Of a stretch of 64,000 nucleotides of DNA, positions 7,141 through 62,638 are shown piece after piece (position 1 is the first letter of the stretch; each line of letters opens with the position of its first letter). Location of the stretch: NCBI GenBank assembly GCA_035551475.1, contig DASZMX010000133.1:21205-85204 (forward strand). The letters run 5' to 3'. The translations under genes were made by a program, and so were the position numbers. A model generated the notes under the pieces. That model was given only the letters and a program-made list of their open reading frames with translations. It made no database searches and was not told the DNA's origin. Source of the DNA: Verrucomicrobiia bacterium (GTDB lineage: Bacteria > Verrucomicrobiota > Verrucomicrobiia > Limisphaerales > Palsa-1400).

Positions 7141-7208
7141 CCGCAGGGAGCGGAAACATTTATTCGTGCCATCCGCGGTGTTCGTGATAAATTTAGATTT
7201 TTCCAGAT

Positions 7209-8297: not shown

Positions 8298-8303
8298 TAC
8301 ATC

Positions 8304-14888: not shown

Positions 14889-15722
14889 CTACTTGGGGGC
14901 GGCAAGTTGGGCTTTCACTTCCGCGATGGATTTGGCGATGGTTTCCTTGTCCGGCGAATACTTTTGCAACTCGGTAAGATCCGCCAGCAATTGCTGCCGG
15001 TTCCCCTCCTCCTTGTCGAGCAAGACCAGCTCGCCGTAAATCTGGTCGCAATCAATCGGGTCGGGTTTATCCCCGCGGGCCTCGTGGCGGTTCCATTTTT
15101 CCAACGCGATATGGAAAAGGTTGCGCGCAGTCCGGGGGTCGTTTTTGACATGCGCGTAAATACGGCCCAGCGCGGTCAGAATGTCCACGTTGTCTGGATT
15201 GGCGCGCAAGCCTTCGCGCAGGAAAGCCTCCGCCTCCTGCGGTTGTTTCAAGCGGGACAGCCAATAGGCGCCGGTGATGTAGCTGTCGGGATCCTGGGGA
15301 TCGAGCGCGGCGGAGAGCTTGAGCCACGGGAGCATCTCGCGCTCGTTCCCCCCAGAGAGATGCGTGTGCTCGGTGGGGTAAAAGTTCCGCCCAAACTTGT
15401 CAATAAAATCTCGTGGCGCCCCCAGGAAATTGCCTTCCTCTTCCTCGTGATGCTCATCATGGCCGGGCTCCTCGGCGGCCATGTGGGAATGGCCGCCGCC
15501 GCGCGGATGGTCGAAGATGCCGGGATAAAAACCGCTGTGAAAATAAGCGTCCGCCTTGGCGAAGAAATGATGCGCAAAGAGGCGGCGGCTGTCGCCCAGC
15601 AGCGACACCAGCAGGCTGGCGGAATTGCCGGCGCTATTATTGACCTCTTGAAAATACGGATCGAGGGTGGTGGCGAGGGTAAAACAGCACACGGCAATAA
15701 GCGCGAGCAAGGCCTTTTTCAT
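14889..15722 (-). CDS. exported TPR-repeat protein with His/Glu-rich segment
   Basis: Start moved to ATG 15722 (MKKALLALIAVCCFTLATT signal/anchor), which forms an ATGA overlap with the permease stop. Contains HPRGGGHSHMAAEEPGHDEHHEEEEG and TPR-like repeats (EAEAFLREGLRANPDNVDILTALGRIYAHVKNDPRTARNLFHIALEKW). Confidence 0.7.
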   Translation of the reverse strand: MKKALLALIAVCCFTLATTLDPYFQEVNNSAGNSASLLVSLLGDSRRLFAHHFFAKADAYFHSGFYPGIFDHPRGGGHSHMAAEEPGHDEHHEEEEGNFLGAPRDFIDKFGRNFYPTEHTHLSGGNEREMLPWLKLSAALDPQDPDSYITGAYWLSRLKQPQEAEAFLREGLRANPDNVDILTALGRIYAHVKNDPRTARNLFHIALEKWNRHEARGDKPDPIDCDQIYGELVLLDKEEGNRQQLLADLTELQKYSPDKETIAKSIAEVKAQLAAPK

Positions 15723-16498
15723 ACCGTGAGGGCTTTGCGGCGAAAGATCCCCCAAGCCAGGGCCAGCAGGAAAACTGAATACAGCGCCCCGTAAAGGGTC
15801 GCCCCCTCCACCGCCAGCGCCGTGACCGGGGCGTGGTTATGGACAATGATCTTGCGGATGTCGAAGAACTCGAGATGCGGAATAAAATAATAAAGCGCGT
15901 AAGTGATCGCGCCTTCAACCCCGCCAATGCCGGCGGCGATGCGATTTAAATATTGGCCGGCGAAAAGCAATCCGATGATGACGATGAAACAAATCGTGGC
16001 GTTGGACGACGGCGCGGTGAAAACAACGGAACCCAGCAGGACCATCGCCGTCACAATGCCGAGGCAAATCCAGTGCAGCCAGACCGCCTGAAAATAAGGC
16101 GTAAACGCCAGGGCATGCTCGCGCGAGCCAATGATGACGCCGTAGAAAAAATAGAACAGGAGCAGGGAAATGCCGCAGGCCAGCCAGCAGCCAACGAATT
16201 TGCCGCCGATTAATTGCGCGCGAGTGACCGGTTTGGCGAGGAGCGGAAAAATCGTGCGGCTTTCCCGCTCGGCGGGGATTTGCCGCGCGGCCGTCGTGAT
16301 GGCAATGACCAGCGAGCAAACCCAGATCAGCAAGAGACAAATCTCCTTGAGGTAGCGGACGATCTGCTCGTCGTTGAAAATGTTGGCGGAGCCAAGGATG
16401 AGGGTAAGCAAGGCGGTCAGGACGAAAAGCACGTAAAAATCCTTGCGGCGATAAAGCTCCTTGATGACGACCCCAGCCAAAGCGAAGACGTTATTCAT
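15719..16498 (-). CDS. ABC-2 type transporter permease
   Basis: Start moved to ATG 16498 (MNNVFALAGVVIKELYRRKDFYVLF), 2 nt after the ATPase stop. About 6 predicted TM segments; ABC-2/NosY-like size and layout. Confidence 0.75.
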   Translation of the reverse strand: MNNVFALAGVVIKELYRRKDFYVLFVLTALLTLILGSANIFNDEQIVRYLKEICLLLIWVCSLVIAITTAARQIPAERESRTIFPLLAKPVTRAQLIGGKFVGCWLACGISLLLFYFFYGVIIGSREHALAFTPYFQAVWLHWICLGIVTAMVLLGSVVFTAPSSNATICFIVIIGLLFAGQYLNRIAAGIGGVEGAITYALYYFIPHLEFFDIRKIIVHNHAPVTALAVEGATLYGALYSVFLLALAWGIFRRKALTV

Positions 16499-43698: not shown

Positions 43699-43832
43699 GC
43701 GCGTATTAAAGAGTTCCCGCGCCCAAGTTCAAAGTTCAAAGCGCTGGCAGGAAATCACCTACCGGCGCGGCTGAGAACCCCGGAGAATGTTTCCGGTTGG
43801 CGCCGCGAAGCCCGTGGATGAGGGTTGAAAAA

Positions 43833-44960
43833 ATGTTATCACCGAATTCGGACTTGAACATTAAAGACGGGCCGCAGATGGCCCGCCTCGCGCAGTTACG
43901 CTACGTCTCGCACACCGAGGCGGGCATTCGGCGGCAAAAGGCCGGCGCTGCTTTTAAATATTTCGGTAAGGATGGCAAACTCATCGATGATCCAGCTTGC
44001 TTGCGGCGCATCAAGGCGCTGGCTATTCCTCCGGCGTGGCGCAACGTCTGGATCTGCCCCTTGGAAAACGGCCATTTGCAAGCCACCGGGCGCGATGATC
44101 GCGGGCGCAAGCAGTATCGCTATCACCGGCGCTGGCGCGAAGTGAAAGATGACACCAAATACAATCGCATGCTCGCGTTCGCCCAGGCGCTGCCGAAAAT
44201 TCGCCGGCGCGCGGCGCGGGATTTGCGCCCGCATGGCTTGCCCAAGAACAAGGTCATGGCCACGGTGGTGCGCCTGTTGGAGTCAAGTTTGATTCGCGTG
44301 GGCAATGATGAATACGCCCACGACAATCATTCTTACGGCCTGACGACCATGCAGAACCGCCACGCGCGCATCCATGGCGCCACGATTCAATTCCATTTTC
44401 GCGGGAAAAGCGGCAAGGAACACACGGTGGAGATCCACGACGCGCGCCTCGCAAAAATCGTGCGCGCATGCCGGGACATTCCGGGGCAGGATTTATTCCA
44501 ATACCTCGACGACGATGGCCAGCGGCATCATGTTCGCTCCGAGGATGTCAACGAATACCTGCGCGAAATCAGCGGCGCCGATTTCACCGCCAAGGATTTC
44601 CGCACCTGGGCGGGCACCATTCTGGCCGGCATGGCTTTGCGGGAATTCCAAAAATTTGATTCGCAGGCGCAGGCCAAAAAAAACCTGGTGCAGGCCATTG
44701 AATCCGTGGCGCGCCGGCTCGGCAACACTCCGGCAATCTGCCGGAAATGCTATATTCACCCCGAAATCCTGGACGGTTATTTGCAAGGCGCGACGGTCGC
44801 CACCGTGCGGCGCCGAGCCGAATCGGAATTGCGCTCGAATCTGCACCAATTACGCCCCGAAGAAGCAGCGGTCGTAGCCTTCCTCGAAAAACGCCTCGCT
44901 CGCCAAAAGGAGCCGCTGGAGAAAACGCTTAAGCGCAGCTTGCGTCAGCTCAAAGGTTAA
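43833..44960 (+). CDS. DNA topoisomerase IB (poxvirus-like bacterial type)
   Basis: LRYVSHTEAGIRRQKAGAAFKYF, IPPAWRNVWICP, GRDDRGRKQYRYH, FRGKSGKEH, and active-site Tyr context ICRKCYIHPEILDGY. Start is uncertain (TTG 43797, ATG 43833 or ATG 43878). Confidence 0.8.
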   Translation: MLSPNSDLNIKDGPQMARLAQLRYVSHTEAGIRRQKAGAAFKYFGKDGKLIDDPACLRRIKALAIPPAWRNVWICPLENGHLQATGRDDRGRKQYRYHRRWREVKDDTKYNRMLAFAQALPKIRRRAARDLRPHGLPKNKVMATVVRLLESSLIRVGNDEYAHDNHSYGLTTMQNRHARIHGATIQFHFRGKSGKEHTVEIHDARLAKIVRACRDIPGQDLFQYLDDDGQRHHVRSEDVNEYLREISGADFTAKDFRTWAGTILAGMALREFQKFDSQAQAKKNLVQAIESVARRLGNTPAICRKCYIHPEILDGYLQGATVATVRRRAESELRSNLHQLRPEEAAVVAFLEKRLARQKEPLEKTLKRSLRQLKG

Positions 44961-48765: not shown

Positions 48766-51700
48766 ATGCAACGAAAAGCAATCGCTGGCGTTCTCACCGC
48801 CGCACTCACATTCGTCGCTGGACTCACCGTCCAGGCCCAGTCACCTTATTCTCAGGCCGTCACCAGCCTCAATCCGGTTGGTTACTGGCCTTTGAACGAA
48901 ACCGTCCAGCCGCCACAGCCCTTTGCGCAAAGTCTCGTGGCCAGCAATCTCGGCTCCTTGGGCGCCGCAGGCTCCGGATACTACGGAGCTTGGTATCAGC
49001 CCTCCGGCAACACTTGGTATCTTACCAATAACATCATGCAAGTTCCGGCGGTCACCGCCCCGTTCGACAACAGTGTCGCAATGGTCTGCGGCGGACCTGG
49101 CCAATATGTCATCGTCCCGCGCAACACCAATGGCGTCGCCAACCCGGCAATTACGCTAAATCCGCCGTTCTCCATCGAAACCTGGCTGAAAATCGGACGC
49201 ACCACCAGCGCGCTGGGCGACATCGTCAGCCAGGGCGGCTTCGCCAACCTGAACACCGGCGGTTCCAATCCCACCAACCAATTTTACGGCGGCCCCTCGG
49301 TCGGCGCCTGGGCGGGCGTCGAACTCGGGCAATACCAGGATTACATTTTCCTGATTTGCCAGGCCACCAACGCCCAGAGCAAAGCCAATGAACTCGATTC
49401 CAGCGCCTACAATGCCGGAAAGGGATTTCATGTCGGCGATTGGGTGCACATTGTCGCCACTTTCGACGGCACGAAGGAAACCCTCTACACGAATGGCGTC
49501 CTTTGCGCGTCGAAAAATATCGGCAATAACGGCGCCGGCATCAAATACGTCCCCGATCCCACCACGCCGCTCATGATCGGATCCGGCAGCGAGGTTTCGG
49601 TTTCCTATGGCACTCCCTATGTCGGGGATATGCATGACGTGGCCATTTATCCGACGGCGCTGACTGCTTCCAGCGTCCTGACGCACTATCAAACCGCCTA
49701 CGGCACGAATGGAACTTATGGCAGCAGCTATCCGACGGCTGTTCTCGCGGACAACCCTTCTCTCTATTACCGCCTGAATGATCCGCAAACTGCGACCAAC
49801 GCCGGTTACAACAGCGCCTCCTTCCCGGTGGCCAATAACTACGGTGTCATCGGCGCCGCCGGCAACGGCGTGTATCAGCCCGGCACGACGCCGGGTGTCG
49901 CCGGCGCTCCGTATTCCGGCTTCGGCGCGAACAACCGCGCGGTGGCGATCAACGGTTGGTTCGGCGCGGTGGATGTCGGCGGCGGCAATTTGCCGGCCGA
50001 GCTGAATCCCACCAACACCTCGCCATTGACGGTCGTGAGCTGGTTCCGCGGCAACCCCGCCGATTCCCCGGCCCGTTTCCAGGAAATCGTCGGGCACGGC
50101 GACAACTCCTACCGCTTGGCCTTGAGCCAGACGGCGGCGGATAATCATTTCAATCCTGGCCCCGGGCCGGAACTCGGATTCACCGATCCGCTCGACGTTC
50201 GCACCAATGGTTGGGCCTTGAACGATGGCGCCTGGCACATGGTCGCGGGCGTATCCGACGGCACCAACGATTATCTCTACCTCGACGGCGTGCTCGCCAA
50301 GAGCGGAACGAAAGCCGGCGGCATCAACATCGTCGGCTCGCCGACCGATTTGTTGCTGGGCGGCGATTCGCAATATACCTACGCCAGCACAGGCACCTAC
50401 AATTCCATCCGCAACTTCGATGGCGAAGTGGGCCAGGTGGCTTTCTGGACGAACGCGCTCTCGATGACGCAAATCCAAACCTTGTTCAACGCGGCGCAAG
50501 TTCCGCCCTTGATTCACCTGCAACCTGCGGGCGTCACCAATAATCAAGGTCAATCCGTGAGCCTGACCACGAAGTTCACGGGCTCAAGCCTGACCTATCA
50601 ATGGTATATCAATAACGCGCCATTTGGCGGGCAGACCAATGCCACCCTGTCCTTGAACCCGGCGAACTTCACTAATAGCGGCAGCTATTATGTGATCGCC
50701 TCCAATCCCTACGGCAACGCCACCAGCGCCGTGGTGAACGTGCAAATCTTCGGCCCACCGACTATCCAGGCCCAGTCGCAAGCCAACCTGCAAATCTTCG
50801 CAGGCGTCAACCCCACACTATTCATCAACGCGGGCGGCCCCTCTCTCCAATACCAATGGACGAGCAATGGCATCGCGATTGCCGGCGCCACCGGCCCGAC
50901 TTACACGATCAACAACGCGCAAGTCTCGGCTACCTACAACGTGACCGTCTATAACTTCGCGGGCACCAACATGGGATCGCCGGTTTCACTGACCGTCGTG
51001 CCGCAGCCTACCGCTCCTTATCCGCAGGCCGTCCTGGCCGACGGCCCGATTGCCTACTATCGCCTGGATGAAACCAGCGGCACAACGGCGTTCGATATGG
51101 TTGGTGGTTACAATGGCATTTACACGAACGTGGCCCTGGCCTCGGACACCAGCTACAGCGCTGGCGGCGGCACGGCTAACTCGGATCCCAATGAGCTCGC
51201 CCCTGAATTCGGGACGCTTACCTCCAGCAATAGCTATGTCGGCTGGATTCCCACCAACCTCGATTTCGCCGTGCCGAATGGCGGCAATGGCGAATTCTCC
51301 GTGGAATTGTGGGGCTATGAATTCCTCGACTTCACCGACTCCGGTCTGGTGGCGCTCGGTTACGGCAACGGCGGCGAGGAGTTCGCCCTCGATCTCGGCG
51401 CCACGGGCCACGCCCTGCGCTTCTACGTGCGCAACGCCGCTGGAACTTCCTTCGGCGCGGCCAGCACTTATGTGCCCAACACGGGTTGGCATCATATCGC
51501 CGCCGTGTGCGATGAGGCCGCCGGTCATACCTACCTGTATGTGGACGGCGTAGTGGTCGCCACGGGCACGATTCCGGCGGGTTCCGGCATTCTGTCGGAA
51601 AAGTCTCCGCTCTCCATCGGCGCCCGCCAATCCGGCCAGTTCACGGCGTTCGACGATCAGTTTATCGGCAACCTCAGCCAGGTCGCCCTTTATAAAAAGG

Positions 51701-53487
51701 CGCTGACCCAGAGCGAAGTGATTGCGCATTATGACGCGGTGGGCATCGCTCCCACGGCGCAAATCGTGCCCGACAACTTGAACACCAACCAAGGCGCCAA
51801 TGTGACCTTCACGGTGTCAACTACAGGGACCGGCCCGTTTTCGTATCAGTGGGCGGACAACAGCGGCAATCCTGTCGGAACGAATGGCCCGGCGCTAACG
51901 CTCTTGAATGTGCAAGGCAGCCAGGCTGGCCAATATTCGGTGACGGTGACTGGCGCCGATGGTTCCACCACCGCCTACGCCAACCTCCAGGTTGGCCAAG
52001 GGCCGCCGGCCATCGTGACGGACATCAGTCCGTTGACTCAGACTGTGGAGTTATATTCCGGCCTGTCCCGGGTTAGCTTCAGCGTCGGAGCGTCGGGCAC
52101 CGCGCCGTTCTCCTATCAATGGTATCAGAATGGGCAAAAAATCAACGGCGCCACGAGCAATACCTACACCTTCAATGCGCTCGCGGGTACCAACACTTAC
52201 TATGTGGCCGTCACTAATTCCCAGAGCGGCGGCGTGCCTACACTAAGCAGCACCGCGACGGTGATTGGCATTGCGCCGCCGATGTTGAATCCGGCGAGCT
52301 ACGCGCATCGTCTCAAGATCACGTTCCCCGGCTACCTCGGGTCGCCGCTGACGAACTTCCCGGCCTTGGTGACGCTGAGTCCGAGCATTCCCGGCTTCTC
52401 CTATGGCGACTTTAGCGCGGGCAACGGCGCTGATCTCCGCTTCACGGACGAATCCGGCACGGCGGAATTGCCCTATGAAATTGACGAATGGAATCCGGCG
52501 GGCGCCTCAAAGGTCTGGGTGCAAATCCCGCTTCTCAACGGATCCAACATCTGGGCCTACTGGGGCAACTCGGCTGACACCAACGCGCAAGCCTGGAGCA
52601 CCGATGGCAGCGTCTGGACGCCGGAAGGATACCAGATCGTTTATCACTTGAAGGAAGGCGCGCTGCCGTTCGCCGACAGCACCGGCCAGCATCCGGCCAC
52701 CAACGGTCCGGCGCCAACGGCCGGCACGGGCATCGTCGGTCGGGGCGGCCTCTTCAATGCCTCCTACATCTCGCCCGGCGCGGTCACCTTGAGCAATCAG
52801 TTCACCACCTACGCGTGGATCAACCTGCCGGCCAATACCACCCAGATTCAAACCATCTGGGCGAATGCGGTGGGCGGGTTCGGTGGCAATGGTTTCGCCC
52901 TCTTTGTGGATAGCTACAATACGGGCGACCTCAGCATTCATGCCGCGAACGGCAATGGCGCGGGCGGCGGCGAAGAGCCCCAATCCTCAGCCGGCACAGT
53001 GACGACCGGCCAATGGCATCAAGTGGCGGCCACCTGGGATCAACCGGATAATTCCGTGGTGGTCTATCTCGACAACCAATTGGTCTTGTCGAACACGGTG
53101 GTGCAAAACTTCGCCCTTACCAACACCCTGGAACTCGGCTCATTTGTGGATGGAGCCTTCGCGTTCCACGGCAGCATGGACGAAGCGCGCATCCAGTTTG
53201 GCATCGCTTCGCAGGCGTGGATTGCGGCGACCTATGCGAACATCGCGAACAACGCAAGCTTCATCAGCTACGGCGTAGGCCCGACCCTCACCATCGTTCC
53301 GTCCGGCAATGGATATCAAATCTCCTGGTCGGCCGCGGATGGCCCTCTGCAATTGATCACGACGACAAGTTTGACGCCGCCGATCGATTGGACGCCGGTC
53401 ACCACCACGCCGACATTGACGAATGGCCAATATGTCGTGCAAGTGCAAGCGGAAGCTGGAACCAGCCACTTCTTCGCCTTGCAGTAG
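48766..53487 (+). CDS. giant secreted multidomain protein: 4 LamG (concanavalin A-like lectin) domains, 4 Ig-like domains, DUF2341, conserved C-terminal beta domain
   Basis: 1573 aa with signal peptide [26 protein letters not shown]. LamG starts [24 protein letters not shown] and [13 protein letters not shown], with ends such as [17 protein letters not shown]. Ig-like repeats carry LTYQW/LQYQW/FSYQW/FSYQW. DUF2341-like [22 protein letters not shown]...DLRFTDESG...LPYEIDEWN. Ends ...HFFALQ. Confidence 0.8.
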
Positions 53488-53502
53488 GATCATGATACAA
53501 TC

Positions 53503-53538
53503 GCGGGCGCCGGCCCAAACCGGCGCCCGCGCTTTTCG
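53503..53538 (+). terminator. intrinsic terminator-like hairpin between the giant LamG gene and the pseudopilin gene
   Basis: Perfect 11-bp GC stem GCGGGCGCCGG / CCGGCGCCCGC (53503-53513 and 53520-53530), loop CCCAAA, followed by GCTTTTCG. It lies 16 nt after the stop at 53487. Confidence 0.65.
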
Positions 53539-53551
53539 TAGGAGTCATAAA

Positions 53552-54496
53552 ATGAACTTAGGAAACGGCAAATACAACCAACGCCGCGGCTTCACCTTAA
53601 TCGAGTTGCTGGTCGTCATCGCGATTATTGCCATTCTCGCGGCCATGCTGCTGCCCGCCTTGGCGCTCGCCAAACAAAAGGCGCAAGCCGTCAAGTGCAT
53701 GAGCAACACCAAGCAGATGATGCTGGCGTACAAAATGTACTCCGATGATTTCCAGGGAAAGCTCGTCCCCAACAACGAGTCCAAGACCGCCTCAGACACC
53801 GCGGTGGATCTCACTAAACAGACGCCTGGCTGGGTTTCCGGCTGGCTGGATTACGCGGACGCGCAGGGCGACGATACGAACATTGACTATCTAATCAATC
53901 CGCAATACGCCGCTCTCGGGCCGTACGTGAAAAATTCCGCTCTCTTCAGGTGCCCGGCCGACCAAAGCCGGGACGTCAATGGCCAATCGCGCGTGCGCAG
54001 CTACTCCATGAGCCAGGCGGTTGGGCCCAATGTTCTCGGATCGAAAGGCCCGGATTCCGCCGGCAGCTATCAGGGTGGCTGGCTCACCGGAGCCCCGAAC
54101 TCTCCGCAGAACACCTACAATGTGTACATCAAAGAAACAGACGTCGGACGGCCCGCCCCTTCCAGTTTGTTTGTGTTTCTCGATGAACATCCGGACAGCA
54201 TCAACGACGGCTCTTTCGCCGTGGAAATGCCGAACAGCGTCAAGAATACGCTCTGGATTGACCTCCCGGCCAAATATCATGGCAATGCCTGCTGCTTCTC
54301 CTTTTTTGATGGCCACTCCGTCATTCACCATTGGGTGCAGCCCAAAAATATTCCCGAGATCACCAATCAGCCGAAGGATCCCAACAACCCGATTTACGAG
54401 GCGGGCGATCCCGACATCTTGTGGCTGGCGGGTCACGCTTCCGCCAAGCCGGATGGCACCGTGCCGTTTCCGCTGCCTCCCAATTATAATTTCTGA
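53552..54496 (+). CDS. prepilin-type N-terminal cleavage/methylation domain protein (DUF1559-like pseudopilin)
   Basis: Start at ATG 53552, preceded by GGAG at 53541. [39 protein letters not shown] is the canonical G|FTLIE type IV pilin-like leader. The C-terminal FFDGHSV motif is typical of the pseudopilin-like family expanded in Planctomycetes/Verrucomicrobia. Confidence 0.85.
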
Positions 54497-57225
54497 TGTT
54501 ACGCCAGGCAATTTTCGGTTTCATAAGTTGGATCATGGTTTCAGGCGCAGTGGCGGCTCCACTGGCCACGCCCCAAGTCGATGCCTATGACGTCCGGGTC
54601 GGGACGGAGACCTTCTCGCCCCTTTACAAGTTCACCACCAACACCGCTCTGGTGGAAACCGCCAACGTCATTCAAGGCTTGGGCAGCGACGTGATCAAAT
54701 TCTATTTAGGCAGCGACACCACCAAGCAATCCGGCCTGTCACTAACCTCCAAGATCACCAACCTCGTCACGCTGGCCCGCGATGAGCCATCCTACCGCAA
54801 AGTATTCGACATGCCGTTTCGGAATTTTGTGTTTTGGGCCTATCCGTTTTCCAATCCGGATGCGCCTTTTCAGAACGGCTACACGACCGCGGAGGCAAAT
54901 AATGATTATCGTGAAATTTATGATCTTACTCGGTACTTGCTGACCAATTATAACGGCTCAGGCAAGACGTTTTACCTCGGTCATTGGGAAGGCGATGGCT
55001 ATTTTGCGCCTTGGTCCACCAATCCCACGCCCACCGCCATCCAAGGCATGATCGGCTGGCTCAATAACCGCCAAAAAGCGGTGGACGACGCCAAGCGCGC
55101 CACGCCGTTCCACGACGTGATGGTTTATAATTACGCCGAATGCAACCGCGTGCGCGATGCCATGGTAAATCCGCCCACGAGCAATGAGCGCGTGATCAAC
55201 ATGGTCATTCCTTACGTGACCAATCTCGATTACGTGTCCTATTCATCTTATGACGCCCAGAACCTAAGCCTGGCCAACATGACAGCCACGCTGGATTACA
55301 TCGAGGCGCGTATTCCCACCAACAAAGCTTCCGTCATTCCGGGCGAGCGCCTCTTTATCGGCGAATACGGGTTCGCCAATTCCGGGAACAACACCGCCCA
55401 ACAGGAGCCTCTCACTCGCTCCTATATCCAGCGGCTGTTAAACTACGGCTCCAAAGGATTTCGCTTCATTCTATTTTGGGAGGTCTATAACAACGAGCCC
55501 GGCCTAAGCTTTGAATTGATCGACTCCAACAACGTCGCGGTGCCCAATTATTTTCTGCATCAGCGCTTCATCAATCAAGCGCGCCTTCTGACGGCCCGGT
55601 TCAATGAGACCAACGGCCGGCTCCCCAACGACGCCGAATACGTCGGGCTGGTGACGCCGACGTTGAATCAACCTTTTCCGGCGCCAATCAGCCTCTCCAT
55701 GTCGAGCCTCGGCTCGACGGTATGGAACGCCTCCACCGCATCCATCACCGGCAGCCTCGTGCAGGGAATTTATGGCGACGATCAGGCGGTAGTCCGAGCC
55801 TTTTGGGGCCGGCAGAACGGGGGCAACAATGCGTCCGCCTGGGAAAACAGCGCGCTGCTTGGCGTCAATACCAACTTCAACGCAACGGCGTTTTCCACGG
55901 TCATCACCAATCTCGCACCAGGCGGAAATTATTTCTTCACGTTCGAGGCCAGCAACGCGACCACGACGGCGTGGGCCCCCGTAAAACCACTTTCCACGGC
56001 TGGGCTGAATCCGCCGGATTTCTCGCATCGCCTCAAAATCACCTTTCCCGGTTTCCAAGGCTCCGCTCCATTGACCAATTTCCCGGCGCTGGTGTCTTTC
56101 AGCGCGAACACGCCCGGATTTTCCTATGGCCAATTCGCGTCACCTACCGGCGGCGACTTGCGTTTTGCGGACAGCGGCGGATTGACCGAGTTGCCGTATG
56201 AAATGAATCAATGGAACCCGGCCGGGACCTCCACCATCTGGGTGTTGCTGCCATCGCTGGCCAGCGCGACGGATTCGATCTGGGCTTACTGGGGAAATCC
56301 CGCCGCGACCAATCCACCCGCTTACACCACGAACGGCGCGGTCTGGCAGCCCAATCACATTGCCGTGTGGCACCTCGAGCAGGGCGGCTTTCCCTATCTT
56401 GACAGCGCTGGCCATTATCCGATCGCGGGCGGCGTCGCGCCGGCGGGCACGGCGGGATGGATTGGCGAGGGCCAATCGTTCAACAGCGATTATTTGGACG
56501 CAGGCGCCGTGAACCTGGGCAACACCTTCACGCTCTCCGCTTGGTTTTATCTGCCGCCTGGCGTCGCGAACATTCAAACTCTTTTCGCCAACAAACACGG
56601 CGGTTGGAACACCGACGGGGTCTCGCTCTACGTTGACACCTACAACACCTCAGATCGCGCGGTTCTCCTCGAAACGGGCGACGGCACTGGAGGCGTCACC
56701 GCTCAATCGCCTTCGGGCGCCATTAGCGATGGCCATTGGCATTTCGTCGCCGCCACCGTGGATCGCGTCAATGGCGTCGGCCAAATCTACGTGGATGGCG
56801 TCAATCAAACCCAGAGCAATCCCGTGCAGGTAAATTTCGCCAACCAAGCCGATCTCAACCTGGGGCGTTTCACGGACGCCAGCTTTCCGTTTCGCGGCTT
56901 GATGGACGAGGTCCGCATCACGGCGGGCCTGGCCACGCCAGACTGGATTCAGGCGGCCTGGATGAACACGGCCTCGAACGCGACCTTTGCGGCCTTCTCG
57001 GCCATCAATCCGCAACCGTCCCTGCTCCTGCTTTCTTCCGCGGCCGGCGCCACAGTGACCTGGCCTGCCGATACGGGCGTGTACGAGCTTTTTTCCGCCA
57101 CCAACCTCGCTCCGCCCGTGACGTGGGAAGCTGACACAAACACGCCGCAATTAATAAACGGCCAGTGGCAACTCTCGCTTTCCAGCACGGATGCCACCCG
57201 CTTCTATCGCTTGCAGGCGCGCTAA
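54496..57225 (+). CDS. secreted protein: unclassified glycosidase-like N-domain + beta-sandwich + DUF2341 + LamG + conserved C-terminal domain
   Basis: 909 aa with signal peptide [23 protein letters not shown]-domain carries FYLGHWEGDGYF and LFIGEYGFANSG (two conserved Glu about 130 aa apart, GH clan A-like). DUF2341-like [23 protein letters not shown]...DLRFADSGG...LPYEMNQWN. LamG end FRGLMDEVRITAG. Ends ...RFYRLQAR. The ATG overlaps the pseudopilin stop (TGATG). Confidence 0.75.
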   Translation: MLRQAIFGFISWIMVSGAVAAPLATPQVDAYDVRVGTETFSPLYKFTTNTALVETANVIQGLGSDVIKFYLGSDTTKQSGLSLTSKITNLVTLARDEPSYRKVFDMPFRNFVFWAYPFSNPDAPFQNGYTTAEANNDYREIYDLTRYLLTNYNGSGKTFYLGHWEGDGYFAPWSTNPTPTAIQGMIGWLNNRQKAVDDAKRATPFHDVMVYNYAECNRVRDAMVNPPTSNERVINMVIPYVTNLDYVSYSSYDAQNLSLANMTATLDYIEARIPTNKASVIPGERLFIGEYGFANSGNNTAQQEPLTRSYIQRLLNYGSKGFRFILFWEVYNNEPGLSFELIDSNNVAVPNYFLHQRFINQARLLTARFNETNGRLPNDAEYVGLVTPTLNQPFPAPISLSMSSLGSTVWNASTASITGSLVQGIYGDDQAVVRAFWGRQNGGNNASAWENSALLGVNTNFNATAFSTVITNLAPGGNYFFTFEASNATTTAWAPVKPLSTAGLNPPDFSHRLKITFPGFQGSAPLTNFPALVSFSANTPGFSYGQFASPTGGDLRFADSGGLTELPYEMNQWNPAGTSTIWVLLPSLASATDSIWAYWGNPAATNPPAYTTNGAVWQPNHIAVWHLEQGGFPYLDSAGHYPIAGGVAPAGTAGWIGEGQSFNSDYLDAGAVNLGNTFTLSAWFYLPPGVANIQTLFANKHGGWNTDGVSLYVDTYNTSDRAVLLETGDGTGGVTAQSPSGAISDGHWHFVAATVDRVNGVGQIYVDGVNQTQSNPVQVNFANQADLNLGRFTDASFPFRGLMDEVRITAGLATPDWIQAAWMNTASNATFAAFSAINPQPSLLLLSSAAGATVTWPADTGVYELFSATNLAPPVTWEADTNTPQLINGQWQLSLSSTDATRFYRLQAR

Positions 57226-57234
57226 AGCCCCCGG

Positions 57235-59709
57235 TTGACGGGAACGCCGCGCGGACTTAGAATTGACACGATCAAAACGCATCGTCAGCTCATACCGCTT
57301 CTAACCGTATGGCTTCTCGCTGGGGCCACAACTGCGCGCGCTGTTCCGCAATTGTCGCAACTCAATGCCGGGCAACTTTGGCAGCGGCTGGAATTCAACG
57401 CCCTGGGCGTTCCAACTTTTGGGAATCCATTCGACCCTGCCAGCATCGCCGTCGATGCGACGTTCACACTGCCCTCCGGGCGCAAGATCACCACGCCGGC
57501 GTTCTGGTATCAGGAATATCAGCGCACTCCCTCCGGCGCTGCTGAAGCTGACACACCGGTTGGCTTTCCGACGTGGCGGATTCGTTTTACCCCGCCGGAA
57601 GCGGGCGCCTATTCCTTAACCGTGGTGGTGCAAACAAACGGCCACTTTTCCAGCTCCACGCAAGCTGCCTTCTCCGTGCCCACTAACGCGCCGAACATCC
57701 GCCATGGCTACGCGGGTCTCGCGCCGGGCCATCAGTATTTCCAAACCGGCGACGGCCAACCACTGCGCTTAATCGGCGAGAACGTCTGCTGGTACGACAA
57801 CAGCACTTACGATTACGATAAATGGTTTTCCCACATGACCAACGCCGGGGAGAATTACGCCCGCATCTGGATGTGCCCGTGGGCGTTTGGCTTCGAAGAC
57901 ACCGCCACGTCCCGCACGAATTATGCCCAGCAACCAGCATGGCAGTTGGACACAGTCCTGCAGGAAGCGGAACAGCGCGGCATCTACATATTGCTCTGCC
58001 TCGATTATCACGGGATGTTCGCCACGCAGCCGGACTATTGGGGCGGGAATAATCTCTGGCCGCAGAATCCCTACAACGCGGCCAACGGCGGTCCGTGCGC
58101 CGACCCGAATAGCTTTTTTACCAATACCGTCGCCGCCAATATTTATCAGAAGCGCCTGCGTTATCTGGCGGCTCGATACGGCTATAGCCAGAACCTTCTC
58201 GCCTGGGAATTGTTCAATGAAATCGACAACGATTACGCCTATCTCAATCCGTCGGACGTGGCGTCGTGGCACGCCACCATGGGCGCATGGTTGCACACGA
58301 ATGACCCCTTTGGCCATCTCGTCACCACCAGCTTGACCGGGAGCAGCGACCGTCCGGAAATTTGGTCGCTGCCACAATTGGACTTTGCCGCCTACCATTC
58401 TTACGCGGAGGCGAGTCCATCCACGAAACTTTCCGCCATTGCGCAATCTTTTTGGCAGCGTTACGGCAAGCCGGTGATGATCGGCGAATTCGGGACCGAT
58501 TCCACTGGTTGGGCGCGCGCCAACGACCCTCTTCTGCGCGGCTATCGACAGGGGATTTGGGGTGGCGCATTAGGCGGCTCCGTGGGAACGGCAATGTCGT
58601 GGTGGTGGCAAAATATTGATAGTGAAAACGATTATCCCGACTACACGGCTTTGAGCGCCATCTTGAGCCGCACCGGCTGGGGCGTGGGCGCATGGACGAA
58701 CATCATCTTCCAAACCGCCGGCGGAGCGCCGCCCACGGTCGGCGCGTTGATTCCGGGCGGCCAGCCTTTCAATGTGACGCTGCCTCTTAGCGCCGGCTGG
58801 GGCGTCATGGATTCCGGCGCCTTGGCGGTGGCAGACAACCAAGCCGGTGGCTACTCTGCGCCGGTTTTGAATGCATTCGTGCACGGTATTTGGCACGCCG
58901 ATTTGAAAACGCCTTTTCAACTCAACGCCTGGCTCACGAATAATGCGCGTCTCGTCCTGCATTTGAATTCCGTTTCCACCGGCTCAATTATGGCGGTGAA
59001 CGTCGATGGCAAACAGGTGTTCAGCACGAACCTCGTCGATCTGGACGGCACGTACAATGTCGATGAAGAATACAACACGGATATTCCCGTAAACCTTCCC
59101 AGCGGCCAGCACACCATCAACGTCACCAACCTCGGCAATGATTGGTTCTGCCTGGATTGGGTGCGGCTGGAAAATGTGTTGCCTGCGGCCTACGCCGCGG
59201 GCTGGGCGCCTTCACCCGCTTCCATTGGGTTGCGGGGCGCGCACGAATCATTGCTGTACGTCGTCGCGCCCGGCGTGTCGTTTCCCGCCAATGCGACCAC
59301 GACCAACCTGCCCTTGCAACATACCACCTCGATCACGCTCACCAATTGGCCGGATGGAAAGTTCGTTGCCGAATGGAAGGACCCCGCTACGGCGCGTTCG
59401 CTCGGCATTGTTCAGGCCGCGGCGGCTCACGGCGGCCTCACGCTGCCCCTGCCCGATTTTACGGAAGACGTCGCGGGCATTGTTTACTCGCCTCCGCAAT
59501 TGGCGCCGTTTTCCAGCGCGAGCGCGGGCGGCTTTCAATTCTCCTTTCACTCGGAAACTGGCGGCCAATATGAAATTCAAACCTCCTCCAATTTATGGGG
59601 CTGGACGCCATGGCTCAACGTGACGAACACCAACGCCGCCATGCAGGTGACGGCGCCATTCTGGCCCGCGACGCCTGGCGCGTTCTTCCGCGCGCAGAAA
59701 ATTCAATGA
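57235..59709 (+). CDS. secreted DUF5060 + GH5-type (clan GH-A) glycoside hydrolase with C-terminal beta-sandwich modules and conserved C-terminal domain
   Basis: 824 aa with signal LIPLLTVWLLAGATTARA. DUF5060-like N-domain (FTLPSGRKITTPAFWYQEY...WRIRFTPPEAGAYSL). Catalytic motifs NLLAWELFNEIDN (acid/base NE) and PVMIGEFGTD (nucleophile E). Ends ...GAFFRAQKIQ. TTG start, uncertain. Confidence 0.75.
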   Translation: MTGTPRGLRIDTIKTHRQLIPLLTVWLLAGATTARAVPQLSQLNAGQLWQRLEFNALGVPTFGNPFDPASIAVDATFTLPSGRKITTPAFWYQEYQRTPSGAAEADTPVGFPTWRIRFTPPEAGAYSLTVVVQTNGHFSSSTQAAFSVPTNAPNIRHGYAGLAPGHQYFQTGDGQPLRLIGENVCWYDNSTYDYDKWFSHMTNAGENYARIWMCPWAFGFEDTATSRTNYAQQPAWQLDTVLQEAEQRGIYILLCLDYHGMFATQPDYWGGNNLWPQNPYNAANGGPCADPNSFFTNTVAANIYQKRLRYLAARYGYSQNLLAWELFNEIDNDYAYLNPSDVASWHATMGAWLHTNDPFGHLVTTSLTGSSDRPEIWSLPQLDFAAYHSYAEASPSTKLSAIAQSFWQRYGKPVMIGEFGTDSTGWARANDPLLRGYRQGIWGGALGGSVGTAMSWWWQNIDSENDYPDYTALSAILSRTGWGVGAWTNIIFQTAGGAPPTVGALIPGGQPFNVTLPLSAGWGVMDSGALAVADNQAGGYSAPVLNAFVHGIWHADLKTPFQLNAWLTNNARLVLHLNSVSTGSIMAVNVDGKQVFSTNLVDLDGTYNVDEEYNTDIPVNLPSGQHTINVTNLGNDWFCLDWVRLENVLPAAYAAGWAPSPASIGLRGAHESLLYVVAPGVSFPANATTTNLPLQHTTSITLTNWPDGKFVAEWKDPATARSLGIVQAAAAHGGLTLPLPDFTEDVAGIVYSPPQLAPFSSASAGGFQFSFHSETGGQYEIQTSSNLWGWTPWLNVTNTNAAMQVTAPFWPATPGAFFRAQKIQ

Positions 59710-59743: not shown

Positions 59744-62638
59744 ATGATACGCTGGTTCGCCGCCCTTTGCCTTGCGGCTTGCGCCTGCTGTCAAGCGCTT
59801 TCCGCGCAGCCGCTCTACACGCTCGTGGCTGGGGTGGACCAATTTGAAGGGTCGTCTGCGGCGTGGGGCCTTCTGCAAACCAACGGCTTTGTCGTGGCCG
59901 AACCTTCCTTCAATGACTTCTCCGAGGCTTACGCCAGTTCGCCGTTGCCCGTCTTTATCACACCTGATTCCGCCTGGGACGCCTACGTCAGGATTGTGCA
60001 ATTTGGCCTCAACCGCGCCCGGTTGGCGGAGGCCCCGCGCCTCGCGGCGTTCTCTCATCAATTGTGGTCGGCCGCGCGCGCAAAGTCCCAGAGTGAAGGG
60101 CCGGATTTTGCGGTGCTCGCGTCCTATGCCGCCATCGGCTTGGGATTGCAGGACGAAAATTTTGCCGACGATTTGCCCAAGGGAGAAAAACACATTATCG
60201 AAGCGCTGCGGGCCGGCGCCGGGACGGTCGAACCCGGCCTCGGCGGAGCGCTGGCAGCCGCTGCCTTCCGGGCGCCCGCCCAAATCGCCGGCGATAATCA
60301 GTTGGCCGGCTGCTTCGCCGCTCGGCAATGGTATGGCACAGTGGTCTTCCGCTTGTCGGATGCCCGCGAAACGCGTCTCGCCCTCGATTTGGCGTGGCTC
60401 ATTCAAAGCGACCCCGCCCTCTTTCAGGCGTGGGGCGCCTTAACGGCCCGCGACGAGGCGCTGTGCGGCCCAGCGACGGATGGCGATGTTGTCAACTATC
60501 TGGCCATCGCGAAAGGCTTTGACCCGTCCGATCCGCATCAGCCCCTGGAAAGTTGGCGCAATGCGCTGCAAAAAAAACTGCCCGACCCACAGGTCAATGA
60601 CCAATTCCTCCCCGCCGATGACAAAACGCATTTTGCCTCGCTGATCAAGGGCTTCCGCCTCTTGCCCCCGCGCCCGTGGCTGAATGATTTGCACGCCACG
60701 AATGAGTTCACCAATTCCCTCGCGGGCCAGTCTTTGGCGCTCCTCTCGCATTTGCGTGATCCGTTGCCCAACTCCGCCCCGCCAGCCCTTCGCACGCCCG
60801 CCTGGCTTGACCTGCAACGCTGGACGGCGTTGGGCGCCTGGGCGGATTGGCCGCGCACATGGGATCTTCCCGGCAAGACCAATGCCGAAACGAAGGAACC
60901 TGACAGTCGGCCCCCAGGAGTGGTGGCGCCATATCCGCATTTTTTTGCCGGCCTGGCTCAAGCCTGCCGGCGCGCCGCCAGCGCGCTGCACGACCCTGCA
61001 TTTGACACTTTGGCGCATGATTACGCCGTGGTGTGTGATCGGCTGGCGGAGCTTGCGAAAAAACAGTTGGCCGCGATCGCGCTGAATGCGGATGACCTCC
61101 GTTGGATTCGTGACTATGGCGCCACCCTGCAAAAATTCCACCTAAGCTCAGAAACCGACGCCAGCGACTTCCCGGTCATTGCCCGCCTCTCTTCCGATCC
61201 AACCGACGATCAAAGCGCCTACACTTGGGACGCGCCGCCCGAGGCCTTGTACATCATCCTGCCAACGGCGGCGCGCGTGCAGCTCTATCGCGGCGCGATC
61301 TTCAGCTTTCGCCACGCCGCGCGGCCTGCGTCCGCGGTGGGGCCAGGAGCCGAACCGCCGGCTCCGCCCGACTTCACTCGCGCCTTCCGCGCCAAAAAAA
61401 CTCTGACGGATTTGTTTTCCGATTTGGCCGATGACACGCGCGAGCGCGACCCGGATATGCCGGCCATTGTCCAGGAATTGCAAAATCGCATCGCGGACTC
61501 CGACGTGCCCGACTTAATTCGGCTGCTTGCCGGTCTCGAGGAGCCCTCGACCGCCTATGCCATTTCATTGGCTGGCTTGATGGGGAAAATGAATTGGAAA
61601 CCGTGGCAAGCCAATTTGTTGCACGTGATGGAAACCAACGAGGCTGCCCTCCCATCCATCGCTGCGATCTTGCAGGATCATCCCGAAGCCGTCGACGCTG
61701 ATTACCTCTGCGCCAATTTCGCCCGGCAGCCGGCGGCGGCGCGCGTGGTTTATTGCCGCTTATTGCGCAAACAAAATCCCACGCCAGAAATTGCGGCCCT
61801 CCTCTGCCGCGCCACGCGCGACGAGAATGAGGACGTCCGCTGGTGCGCTATTTTGGGCGTCCGCGAGTTGCAGTTGACAAACTCGGCCGCGCGGGAAGCC
61901 CTGCTGAAATGCGCCTCTGACACCAACGCCTATGTCGCCGCCGCGGCGATTCGCGCCTTGTCGAAGCTAAATCTCCGCGACACGGCTCCTCTGCTCCTGG
62001 ACCTTCTCCAGCAACGTCGCGCGCTGCCGGCGCCGGCCCCGCATCCGATGGATGAGGCGGTTGTGGCGCGCCGCATGTTGCTCACCGGCGAGGATCCGGA
62101 CGATCTCGAACAGCGTTCCATCCTGATTTCGCAACGCGCACCCGCGCTCCTCCGGCGCGGCGAAATCGGCGCGGCTCCCCAGGATGAGTTGGCCCAGGCG
62201 CTGGGACATTTCCAATACCCGCCCGCCACCGAGCTGCTGTTCAGCCTGCTCGACGGCCCGTTCGCGGCTTCGGCGGTGAAGGCTCTGGACCAATTGGCGC
62301 CGGAGCGCATCCGAAATCAATTGCTTGACACCGCCTGTGACATGAAACGCCCGGCTGCGGAACGCGATGTTGCCTTGCGATTGCTGATGCAGACGGCGCC
62401 TTCCTCTGCCACGGCGCGTCGTCTGGCCCCGTTATTGGATGACAATACCGAGGTGGAATTGGACCAGGCGAATCGTCCGGGAAGCCGCCGGTTCGTCTGG
62501 AAGGTTTCCGACCGCGCCGCTTCCACCGTGGCGCATTTGCTCGGCAAAACGCCGCCGCGTTTCAATCCGGTGTTCGCCGCGCCCGCGAATGCAGGCCCCG
62601 AACAAGCCCGGCAATGGCTGAAAGAAGCGGCGCCGTGA
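59744..62638 (+). CDS. secreted DUF3160-like protein fused to C-terminal HEAT/ARM-like repeats
   Basis: 964 aa with signal MIRWFAALCLAACACCQALSA. DUF3160-like elements LLQTNGFVVAEPSF...PVFITPDSAWDAY, VVAPYPHFFAGL and VQLYRGAIFSFRH. C-terminal HEAT-like repeats (DENEDVRWCAILGVRELQ, DTNAYVAAAAIRALSKL, FAASAVKALDQL). Confidence 0.6.
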   Translation: MIRWFAALCLAACACCQALSAQPLYTLVAGVDQFEGSSAAWGLLQTNGFVVAEPSFNDFSEAYASSPLPVFITPDSAWDAYVRIVQFGLNRARLAEAPRLAAFSHQLWSAARAKSQSEGPDFAVLASYAAIGLGLQDENFADDLPKGEKHIIEALRAGAGTVEPGLGGALAAAAFRAPAQIAGDNQLAGCFAARQWYGTVVFRLSDARETRLALDLAWLIQSDPALFQAWGALTARDEALCGPATDGDVVNYLAIAKGFDPSDPHQPLESWRNALQKKLPDPQVNDQFLPADDKTHFASLIKGFRLLPPRPWLNDLHATNEFTNSLAGQSLALLSHLRDPLPNSAPPALRTPAWLDLQRWTALGAWADWPRTWDLPGKTNAETKEPDSRPPGVVAPYPHFFAGLAQACRRAASALHDPAFDTLAHDYAVVCDRLAELAKKQLAAIALNADDLRWIRDYGATLQKFHLSSETDASDFPVIARLSSDPTDDQSAYTWDAPPEALYIILPTAARVQLYRGAIFSFRHAARPASAVGPGAEPPAPPDFTRAFRAKKTLTDLFSDLADDTRERDPDMPAIVQELQNRIADSDVPDLIRLLAGLEEPSTAYAISLAGLMGKMNWKPWQANLLHVMETNEAALPSIAAILQDHPEAVDADYLCANFARQPAAARVVYCRLLRKQNPTPEIAALLCRATRDENEDVRWCAILGVRELQLTNSAAREALLKCASDTNAYVAAAAIRALSKLNLRDTAPLLLDLLQQRRALPAPAPHPMDEAVVARRMLLTGEDPDDLEQRSILISQRAPALLRRGEIGAAPQDELAQALGHFQYPPATELLFSLLDGPFAASAVKALDQLAPERIRNQLLDTACDMKRPAAERDVALRLLMQTAPSSATARRLAPLLDDNTEVELDQANRPGSRRFVWKVSDRAASTVAHLLGKTPPRFNPVFAAPANAGPEQARQWLKEAAP

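Follow-up and report, generated by a model that had tools for sequence, protein, structure and literature searches.

Gene B of this Verrucomicrobial locus encodes a pilin-like protein that occupies a conserved slot between the genes of two large secreted proteins, A and C, which are putatively sugar-binding or sugar-cutting, and the synteny of B with A and C is a new result. Of 11 B homologs sampled (at least 47% identical), ten sit immediately upstream of a C ortholog, and 30 of 56 informative C-ortholog loci have a pseudopilin gene directly upstream. The adjacency of pseudopilin and enzyme genes is thus strongly conserved for this orthogroup, and the lack of enrichment that a preliminary description of this DNA had named as its refutation was not observed. 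Because B is absent from the remaining 26 C loci, C does not generally need it, and we concluded that B is a common but dispensable accessory of a cassette whose hosts are soil Verrucomicrobia.

Locus layout and the encoded proteins

Genes A to E and their associated features were placed as follows in the window, by which we mean the whole 64-kb stretch of DNA that was analysed.

48766..53487, + strand: gene A, 1573-aa secreted protein (Pfam and translation)
53260-53484, + strand: copy of the C-terminal tag domain in A
53502..53531, + strand: hairpin of 12 perfect G/C pairs with a loop of 6 nt, 14 nt past the stop of A and followed by CTTTTCG
53540..53544, + strand: AGGAG Shine-Dalgarno sequence of B, 7 nt ahead of the ATG
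53552..54496, + strand: gene B, 314-aa prepilin-type H-X9-DG/DUF1559 pseudopilin-like protein
53552-53590, + strand: leader of B (M1-G13), ahead of the mature N-terminal helix and a ~250-aa globular domain
54278..54313, + strand: H243-x9-D253-G254 motif in B; H243, D253, G254 and H255 are invariant in a 54-sequence alignment
54494..54498, + strand: TGATG stop/start overlap of B (TGA, 54494-54496) and C (ATG, 54496-54498)
54496..57225, + strand: gene C, 909-aa secreted protein with a predicted N-terminal clan GH-A TIM barrel
56998..57222, + strand: C-terminal tag domain in C, ~70 aa, ending in ...F[FY]R[LA]Q
57235..59709, + strand: gene D, DUF5060 and GH5 cellulase-family protein with a C-terminal tag as in A and C (Pfam); its start is 57352 in the public gene call
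59482-59706, + strand: copy of the tag domain in D
59744..62638, + strand: gene E, DUF3160 and HEAT-repeat protein, last gene of the same-strand cluster (Pfam)

B carries a complete class-III prepilin signal, with a predicted cleavage site at G13|F14 (G at -1, F at +1) and E at +5, and its basic leader ending in Gly and its hydrophobic helix place it among the type IV pilin-like proteins. The N_methyl model PF07963 scored 39.9 bits (Pfam cutoff 21.2) and TIGR02532 scored 35.1 (cutoff 16.3), and PF07596 (DUF1559/SBP_bac_10) reached 28.5 bits against a gathering threshold of 23.3, matching profile positions 3-142 of 268 only. These scores bear out the earlier view of B as a DUF1559-type pseudopilin-like protein with a prepilin leader, and the PF07596 match, together with the H-x9-DG motif and the prepilin signal, assigns B to the H-X9-DG/DUF1559 proteins. 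The NCBIfam H-X9-DG model was absent among the 15 NCBIfam hits of B at E <= 0.01, this being a short model that HMMER filters may drop, and many B homologs bear the JGI name "prepilin-type processing-associated H-X9-DG protein". The sequence FFDGHSV, previously described as C-terminal, is present and forms part of the H243-x9-D253-G254 motif, but it spans residues 250-256 of 314 and is not at the extreme C-terminus. The GspG model TIGR01710 scored 38.6 bits, far from its cutoff of 88.85, over residues 12-76 only; with this score and no gsp genes nearby, B does not classify as the T2SS major pseudopilin GspG.

E+5 and the entire N-terminal assembly helix of B are invariant across the family, and further family-conserved residues are W94, W177, W235, W261, W291, D137, R147, R149, E212, D215, N218, D219, D237, H243, D253 and H255. 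The AlphaFold2 (AF2) model of B (pLDDT 88.7) shows a long N-terminal pilin helix and a ~250-aa globular domain, a predicted architecture of minor-pilin size. A PDB sequence search matched pilin helices to residues 7-66, and neither this search nor Foldseek of the AF2 model (E > 0.2 for the fold) found a solved structural neighbour of the globular domain.

As had been proposed, B is an orphan. It is the sole ORF with a prepilin motif in the six frames of the whole window, Pfam scans of ~45 ORFs spread over the window detected no T2SS/T4P component, and T2SS/T4P genes are also absent from the ~13 kb of contig past the two window ends (7.5 kb and 6 kb). Horizontal transfer of B alone was rejected, its GC (0.56) and GC3 (0.73) matching those of A and C-E. 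The family was likewise rightly described as massively expanded and of unknown function, with more than 8000 relatives in the database (PMC10632474, PMC8567305). Counts of 67 (PMC13274419) and 91 (PMC8567305) family genes per genome have been reported; Planctopirus has 68 copies, two of them essential (PMC10632474), and the N_methyl+SBP_bac_10 genes of Tuwongella are scattered, with signal-peptide genes at their flanks and their proteins in membrane fractions (PMC8567305).

The flanking proteins A and C have in common a C-terminal DUF2341-LamG-tag module. A consists of a Sec signal peptide, four LamG_3 domains, Ig domains, DUF2341 and the C-terminal tag, and in C a barrel is followed by a beta domain, DUF2341, LamG_3 and the tag. 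The barrel of C (residues ~30-395; AF2 pLDDT 91.2) has no Pfam or CAZy family match, and Foldseek aligned it with GH5_18, GH39, GH10 and GH17 enzymes (E 3e-8 to 1e-5, TM ~0.5). E165 (HWEGD) and E290 (GEYG), placed by eye after barrel strands 4 and 7, are invariant, and a predicted TIM barrel with conserved Glu after these strands makes C a putative member of clan GH-A. The suggestion that C is enzyme-like is thereby upheld, its N-terminal 430 aa forming the predicted barrel. The tag domain itself carries no annotation and occurs at the C-terminus of ~2000 diverse hydrolase clusters. An insensitive 3-sequence tag HMM, which missed the A orthologs in L166-L171, placed a tag-bearing gene beside a pilin-like gene in one of 80 background loci (L070, directly adjacent). 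A pilus lead on A and C from the NCBIfam "TafC fimbrial protein" model was rejected, since the match covers the LamG domain only; TafC belongs to the Tat-dependent fimbriae of haloarchaea.

Synteny and distribution of gene B

The closest relatives of B (65-71% identity) are arranged in A-B-C order, and homologs with 47-53% identity likewise precede C, with a single exception. This position is kept to ~42% identity in at least 28 distinct loci. In 25 loci an A ortholog is found upstream of B/C, and in 12 others it directly precedes C. In twelve of the C loci without B the A-C pair is intact, and the 10 kb around those that were examined contain no B homolog. The hydrolases downstream differ by cassette, GH5 in the window and GH2, GH32, GH27 or GH97 elsewhere.

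For comparison, 36 near-random PVC pilin-like genes (28-43% identity to B) served as a background set; they came from a contig profile scan with the B alignment, which keyed on the generic pilin N-terminus, and are not orthologs. The neighbours of these genes are very diverse. Among 31 pseudopilins in the slot upstream of C, 28 form one clade apart from the 36 random family members and the remaining three belong to a different H-X9-DG lineage, which suggests replacement. The C tree further suggests that B was added to an older module and lost several times.

The hairpin 3' of gene A and the B-C junction

The hairpin between A and B pairs 53502-53513 with 53520-53531 around its loop, and the T-run at 53533-53536 follows in the context C-TTTT-CG. 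It had been described as a perfect 11-bp GC hairpin with a short T-run, and both are real, but the stem is 12 bp. In its 81-nt context the predicted energy is -32.5 kcal/mol (z = -3.3; 1/200 shuffles folds as well). A dispersed REP-like repeat was rejected, since the 64 kb contain just one other perfect hairpin with a stem of 9 bp or more, and the two are unrelated. Rfam gave no matches at gathering thresholds anywhere in the window, hairpin included.

Of 38 distinct loci, 34 have a strong hairpin (stem of 11 bp or more, -20 kcal/mol or lower) 3' of A. It occurs whether or not B is present, and 11 of the 12 A-C loci that lack B have it. Nine of ten consensus pairs show compensatory changes, the hairpin remains beside A where a GH27 gene separates A from B, and nothing comparable occurs 3' of C. 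Based on these data, we assigned the hairpin to gene A as a conserved 3' element, and the proposal that it insulates B specifically is not sustained. In the 8 nt after the strong hairpins at least three T were counted in 13/34 and at least four in 4/34; classical intrinsic termination is therefore doubtful, and in the window itself 12 GC pairs are followed by only 4 T. Terminator-like sites show no overall enrichment between 47.5 and 64 kb (15 found vs 20.8 expected).

Intra-operon stem-loops set differential expression in systems such as pufBA and the malE-malF REP, as partial terminators or 3' stabilisers. The hairpin of A resembles these in being strong, conserved and placed directly 3' of the first gene in a same-strand cluster, presumably its most abundant one, with the downstream genes too close for a promoter of their own: it ends only 20 nt from the ATG of B, and a sigma-70 scan of the A-B interval found no promoter. 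Unlike them, it mostly lacks a U-tract, is not a dispersed repeat in the window and has no Rfam match.

At the other end of B, the stop codon was correctly described as sharing a base with the ATG of C, and the independent gene call of the public contig agrees on the 1-nt overlap. C lacks a preceding Shine-Dalgarno sequence; the Shine-Dalgarno region of B, AAGGAGTTAG, is conserved in L001, L004 and L005. These three loci and L086, the four closest relatives of the window, have a 4-nt ATGA overlap, whereas in the other 25 loci that carry a B-type gene B and C are 14-281 nt apart, bar one uncertain start call. The co-translation proposed for the TGATG junction thus has a real overlap behind it in the window and these relatives, but the overlap is not conserved elsewhere, and because of this confinement obligate co-translation is not a conserved property of the B-C pair.

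Possible roles of gene B

Our preferred reading, which we hold tentatively and at somewhat less than even confidence, is that B serves a conserved Verrucomicrobial A-B-C glycan-degradation cassette as its locus-specific accessory pseudopilin, docked to a T2SS/T4P machine. Genes A, B, C, D and E would be co-transcribed from a promoter upstream of A, with the GC hairpin after A acting as a partial transcription terminator or guarding the A segment against 3' decay, and either role would leave A in excess over B-E. B would be translated from its own strong AGGAG site, and in the clade of the window initiation at C, which has no Shine-Dalgarno sequence, would fall to ribosomes that have just terminated on B at TGATG. 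B would enter the inner membrane, where a prepilin peptidase encoded elsewhere would cleave it after G13, and would then serve as a specialised minor subunit of the cell's single T2SS/T4P-type machine. There it would link the Sec-exported LamG/DUF2341 proteins of the cassette to the pseudopilus or pilus for outer-membrane export or display. It would improve cassette function and would not be required, because related cassettes work without it.

Several known systems resemble this arrangement in part. PVC H-X9-DG/DUF1559 (PF07596) proteins combine, as B does, an N_methyl signal with a globular domain bearing an invariant H-x9-DG, and their genes lie away from T2SS/T4P genes with genes for signal-peptide proteins at their flanks (PMC8567305, PMC10632474); B differs in its weak, partial PF07596 match, and its orthogroup has a fixed A-B-C partner context that the family at large does not. 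In Verruconatronum alginivorum a pulG-like pseudopilin, one of 67 paralogs, lies inside an alginate-induced operon, with one T2SS encoded elsewhere and export of the neighbouring enzymes as its proposed role (PMC13274419). This too is a paralog embedded in a Verrucomicrobium polysaccharide-degradation cluster, but one from Opitutales, with alginate as substrate, PL-family neighbours and no A/C-type LamG-DUF2341 proteins described, and it was compared with B by description. The T2SS minor pseudopilins GspH/I/J/K and the minor pilins that accompany the tip adhesin PilY1 in T4P are likewise large pilin-like subunits that prime or cap a fibre and contact cargo or adhesins, and DUF2341 proteins have been annotated as type-IV-pilus-system components or tip-adhesin analogues and likened to PilY-type tip proteins (PMC4858521). 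B nevertheless matches the models of such subunits only over its N-terminal 25-65 residues, far below cutoffs, lies outside any gsp/pil operon and has a globular fold without a PDB match.

A wider scheme, which taken as a whole we consider doubtful, would make H-X9-DG pseudopilins cargo-specific adaptors that dock Sec-exported exo-enzymes to one T2SS/T4P-like machine. The ~70-aa tag (F[FY]R[LA]Q) of A, C, D and the diverse hydrolase clusters would be a sorting signal for the pseudopilin or the machine, and the A-(B)-C cassette would serve in these Verrucomicrobia as a marker of polysaccharide-utilisation loci, much like the SusC/D pairs of Bacteroidota.

Alternatively, though this is rather unlikely, B may be a glycan-capturing subunit of a retractile pilus or pseudopilus that pulls the polysaccharide of the hydrolases to or into the cell with no contact to A or C, each H-X9-DG paralog being a locus-tuned lectin. 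The conserved residues of B include many Trp, Asp, Asn, Arg and His, which fits a putative sugar- or metal-binding site, the A-C module can dispense with B as with an efficiency factor, and the downstream hydrolases vary between cassettes. Pilus-centred glycan attachment has moreover been proposed for Akkermansiaceae (PMC13174399), and a pseudopilin is co-induced with alginate lyases (PMC13274419). Yet a single B orthogroup is kept despite the changing hydrolases, which fits a constant partner (A or C) better than a changing substrate, and Foldseek found no lectin-like fold match for B.

It is less probable still that B never polymerises, its prepilin signal being a cleavable inner-membrane anchor for a periplasmic tether, chaperone or sensor of C that is made in step with C via the overlap. 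The TGATG/ATGA overlap in five related loci, the fractionation of family proteins with membranes and not supernatant (PMC8567305) and a globular domain much larger than in major pilins would agree with this, but the family-invariant E+5 and assembly helix are hard to explain without filament assembly, and in most loci the overlap is not conserved. That B is a scattered paralog inserted by chance between A and C and passively inherited, with the hairpin a terminator of A and B-E under their own promoter, accords with the scattering of the family around genomes (PMC8567305), the diverse neighbours of the 36 random family genes, the repeated loss of B and a hairpin that belongs to A, but is very improbable given a position held to such low identity across so many loci, a slot apparently refilled by a different paralog lineage, no promoter room in the 20 nt after the hairpin, the overlapping stop and start in the window and its closest relatives, and 54% occupancy upstream of C, far above chance if such genes make up ~1-2% of the genome.

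Pseudopilin paralogs within polysaccharide operons have been reported previously, and B is a test case that is useful but not unprecedented. Proteins with N_methyl and DUF1559/H-X9-DG are among the largest paralog families of Planctomycetota, Verrucomicrobiota and Lentisphaerota, and we know of no function or structure for any of them. The cassette offers an unusually clean handle on the function of the family, with one orthogroup, fixed candidate partners in A and C, natural A-C variants without B, another paralog apparently in the same slot at some loci, and a conserved RNA hairpin that predicts a measurable expression step. An adaptor or glycan-capture role, if true, would explain the expansion of the family and would also define how PVC bacteria, to our knowledge without Sus-like systems of their own, tie the breakdown of polysaccharides in soils to secretion or pili.

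The pseudopilin and its neighbours

Five closely spaced genes, A to E, occupy the plus strand of the locus:

A, 48766-53487, plus strand: 1573 aa; Sec signal peptide, four LamG_3 domains, Ig domains and DUF2341
B, 53552-54496, plus strand: 314 aa; prepilin signal and H-X9-DG/DUF1559 domain
C, 54496-57225, plus strand: 909 aa; signal peptide, DUF2341 and LamG_3
D, 57235 or 57352-59709, plus strand: 824 or 785 aa; DUF5060 and GH5
E, 59744-62638, plus strand: 964 aa; DUF3160 and HEAT repeats

The pseudopilin B, whose N-terminus is [13 protein letters not shown] followed across the break by [24 protein letters not shown], scored above threshold for Pfam N_methyl and for TIGR02532 and, weakly, for DUF1559/SBP_bac_10. 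Its sequence is identical to that of HWD21025.1, which comes from a metagenome-assembled genome of the Verrucomicrobiae. The preliminary description had recognized a prepilin-type gene with FFDGHSV, and both are present, but this string is not at the extreme C-terminus; it belongs to H243-x9-D253-G254, a motif invariant across 54 homologs. The family search gave at least 8000 scored candidates, all at E ≤ 0.001, many of them named 'prepilin-type processing-associated H-X9-DG protein'. The AF2 model, confident at pLDDT 88.7, has a helix of about 50 residues and a globular domain, about 250 aa long, in which regular secondary structure is sparse. PDB sequence and Foldseek matches were confined to the pilin helix (best fold E = 0.23), and thus the globular domain is represented by no solved structure. 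The H-X9-DG family is described as large and unexplained, with 68 paralogs in Planctopirus, two of them essential (PMC10632474).

Among H-X9-DG genes sampled at random, many were followed after 4-180 nt by a small ORF (~125-180 aa, no Pfam match), possibly an unannotated partner that recurs in this family. Examples from sampled loci (L-numbers):

L011, 7917-8456: small ORF after H-X9-DG gene
L020, 4895-5269: small ORF after H-X9-DG gene
L013, 10909-11370: small ORF after H-X9-DG gene
L010, 10919-11416: small ORF after H-X9-DG gene
L036, 10879-11262: small ORF after H-X9-DG gene
L008, 11020-11541: small ORF after H-X9-DG gene

No ORF other than B carried a prepilin motif in any of the six frames of the window. 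Pfam scans of ~45 ORFs across it, and gene calls for the flanking contig (7.5 kb and 6 kb), gave housekeeping genes but no T2SS/T4P components; the term 'orphan' is therefore apt. About 4 kb upstream of the cassette lies a bacterial type IB topoisomerase gene (43797-44960; Topoisom_I and Top1B_N_bact), a kind of gene uncommon in bacteria.

At their C-termini, A and C share a DUF2341-LamG-tag module some 400 aa long (tblastn identity 38-57%). Published annotation makes DUF2341 part of the type-IV-pilus system and compares it to PilY-type tip adhesins (PMC4858521). The tag, an unannotated domain of about 70 aa with the consensus ...G.Q.SW...G.Y.L..T.NL..P..W..VTN...NGQ.....F[FY]R[LA]Q, ends three secreted proteins:

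A, 53260-53484, plus strand: C-terminal tag
C, 56998-57222, plus strand: C-terminal tag
D, 59482-59706, plus strand: C-terminal tag

A profile of these three sequences matched 2149 representative proteins at E ≤ 1e-3, and in 114 of the best 150 the match ended within 3 residues of the C-terminus (26/30 for proteins of at least 600 aa). Carriers sampled included lipases/esterases, GH29+CE2, GH2+malectin, GH5+CBM35, GxGYxYP and DUF2341+LamG proteins. The domain resembles a sorting or anchoring tag placed at the C-terminus.

No Pfam family was found for residues 1-430 of C (54496-55785), for which a (beta/alpha)8 barrel was predicted with pLDDT 91.2. This barrel matched GH5_18, GH39, GH10 and GH17 structures (E 3e-8 to 1e-5, TM ~0.5), and E165 (HWEGD) and E290 (GEYG) were invariant; based on the model, the matches and the two glutamates, C is probably a glycoside hydrolase from a clan GH-A family not yet classified. 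Its N-terminal domain, predicted to be a clan GH-A TIM barrel, has about 970 database relatives, many of which stand alone as proteins of 380-670 aa, and may represent a new family of glycoside hydrolases.

Conservation of the cassette

The closest relatives of B (65-71% identity) all occurred as A-B-C. Eight homologs at 47-53% identity were located, six by look-up and two by contig match (P0034 to L094, P0017 to L148); seven lay directly upstream of a C ortholog, two of these with a GH27+NPCBM gene between A and B, and one was in an unrelated context. A metagenome scan with the C alignment yielded 80 C-ortholog loci, 56 of them distinct and with enough upstream sequence. A pseudopilin stood immediately upstream of C in 30 of the 56, A being visible as well in 25 of those 30; 12 had A and C without B, and 14 neither A nor B. 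The adjacency of pseudopilin and enzyme proposed earlier is thus conserved for the B orthogroup. In the random background set of 36 loci neighbours were very diverse, with LamG, F5/8C or GH-like domains in 3 or 4 of the 9 large flanking genes scanned.

In distance trees, calculated without support values, 28 of 31 C-adjacent pseudopilins formed one clade apart from 36 randomly sampled family members (neighbour joining). At three loci the position upstream of C held another H-X9-DG lineage, 38-39% identical to B and grouping with background paralogs:

L130, 2722-3630: other-lineage pseudopilin
L133, 2292-3212: other-lineage pseudopilin
L143, 4750-5652: other-lineage pseudopilin

Since the C genes of these loci nest among ordinary A-B-C loci in the C tree, this pattern suggests that another paralog took over the vacant position, a possible non-orthologous replacement. 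Loci without B lay at the base of the C tree and were also scattered within the B-containing clade, and from this placement B seems to have joined a module that already existed and to have been lost several times afterwards.

Upstream of several other cassettes stood a large sensor histidine kinase of the Reg_prop/Y_Y_Y type with one or two response regulators of the LuxR/GerE type, resembling the hybrid two-component regulators of polysaccharide-utilisation loci; no regulator adjoined A in the window. Downstream hydrolases of other cassettes differed (GH2, GH32, GH97, GH27), and as a whole the locus resembles a polysaccharide-utilisation locus whose A-(B)-C core stays constant. Variable elements included:

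L166, 1-2867: histidine kinase/regulators upstream
L168, 1-2819: histidine kinase/regulators upstream
L171, 1-524: histidine kinase/regulators upstream
L169, 5594-7879: GH27 (melibiase)+NPCBM between A and B
L171, 5579-7948: GH27 (melibiase)+NPCBM between A and B
L103, ~5924-8727: insertion of ~2.8 kb at the same place

The hairpin after A and the B-C overlap

The hairpin reported upstream of B is real, with a perfect all-GC stem of 12 bp rather than 11 (53502-53513 with 53520-53531, loop 6), 14 nt past the A stop. The stem is followed by CTTTTCG, an AGGAG Shine-Dalgarno and the B ATG, only 20 nt away. Only one other perfect hairpin of 9 bp or longer occurred in the window (15473-15498, 10 bp, loop 6); it lies in or between poorly defined ORFs (14889-15794). 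A strong hairpin (stem at least 11 bp, energy at most -20 kcal/mol) was found 7-53 nt past the A stop in 34 of 38 distinct loci, including 11 of the 12 A-C loci without B, and in L169 GH27 separates A from B, yet the hairpin still adjoins A. Its sequence varied among loci, with double compensatory changes at 9 of 10 consensus pairs, and nothing comparable followed C (2 of 57 post-C regions barely reached -20 kcal/mol). The hairpin is conserved and is a property of A, not of B; a role as insulator of B specifically is not supported, for it travels with A.

It is also doubtful as a canonical U-tract terminator, as among the 34 strong hairpins the next 8 nt held at least three T in 13 and at least four in 4. 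In the window the stem-to-B interval is too short for a promoter, so transcription of B-E would have to pass the hairpin or begin within the 3' end of A. The hairpin is most simply read as an element within the operon that would raise A relative to B-E, through partial termination or 3' protection.

The TGA of B (54494-54496) ends on the first base of the C ATG, and no Shine-Dalgarno of its own precedes C. The overlap was TGATG in the window and ATGA in the four closest relatives; at the other loci, leaving aside one doubtful start call, 14-281 nt separated B from C. Stop/start overlaps are frequent in compact operons generally. The translational coupling proposed from the overlap is plausible in the window clade, but across loci it is not a conserved trait of the two genes.

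Possible roles of the pseudopilin

The best-supported reading, which we hold tentatively, is that B is a peptidase-processed accessory pseudopilin linking LamG/DUF2341 proteins to a T2SS/T4P-type machine. B would be processed by prepilin peptidase and, if it assembles and contacts its partners, would connect the secreted proteins of the cassette to the cell's single such machine for export or surface display; its stoichiometry might be set below that of A by the hairpin and in step with C in the window clade. The same export hypothesis was previously put forward for a pulG-like pseudopilin (67 paralogs) of a cultured Verrucomicrobium, encoded within an alginate-induced operon with the T2SS elsewhere (PMC13274419); that pseudopilin and B both sit within a polysaccharide-degradation cluster. 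That B is instead a glycan-capturing pilin subunit has a precedent (PMC13174399) and seems to us somewhat unlikely. A non-polymerising membrane tether or chaperone is less probable again, and we give little credence to a passive hitch-hiker.

H-X9-DG genes of Planctomycetes are scattered and flanked by secreted-protein genes (PMC8567305), and with this and the Verrucomicrobium precedent B is a further case of a kind already on record. New are the conserved arrangement A-B-C, the hairpin tied to A, and naturally occurring variants in which B is missing or replaced, which together make the function of the H-X9-DG family more testable.
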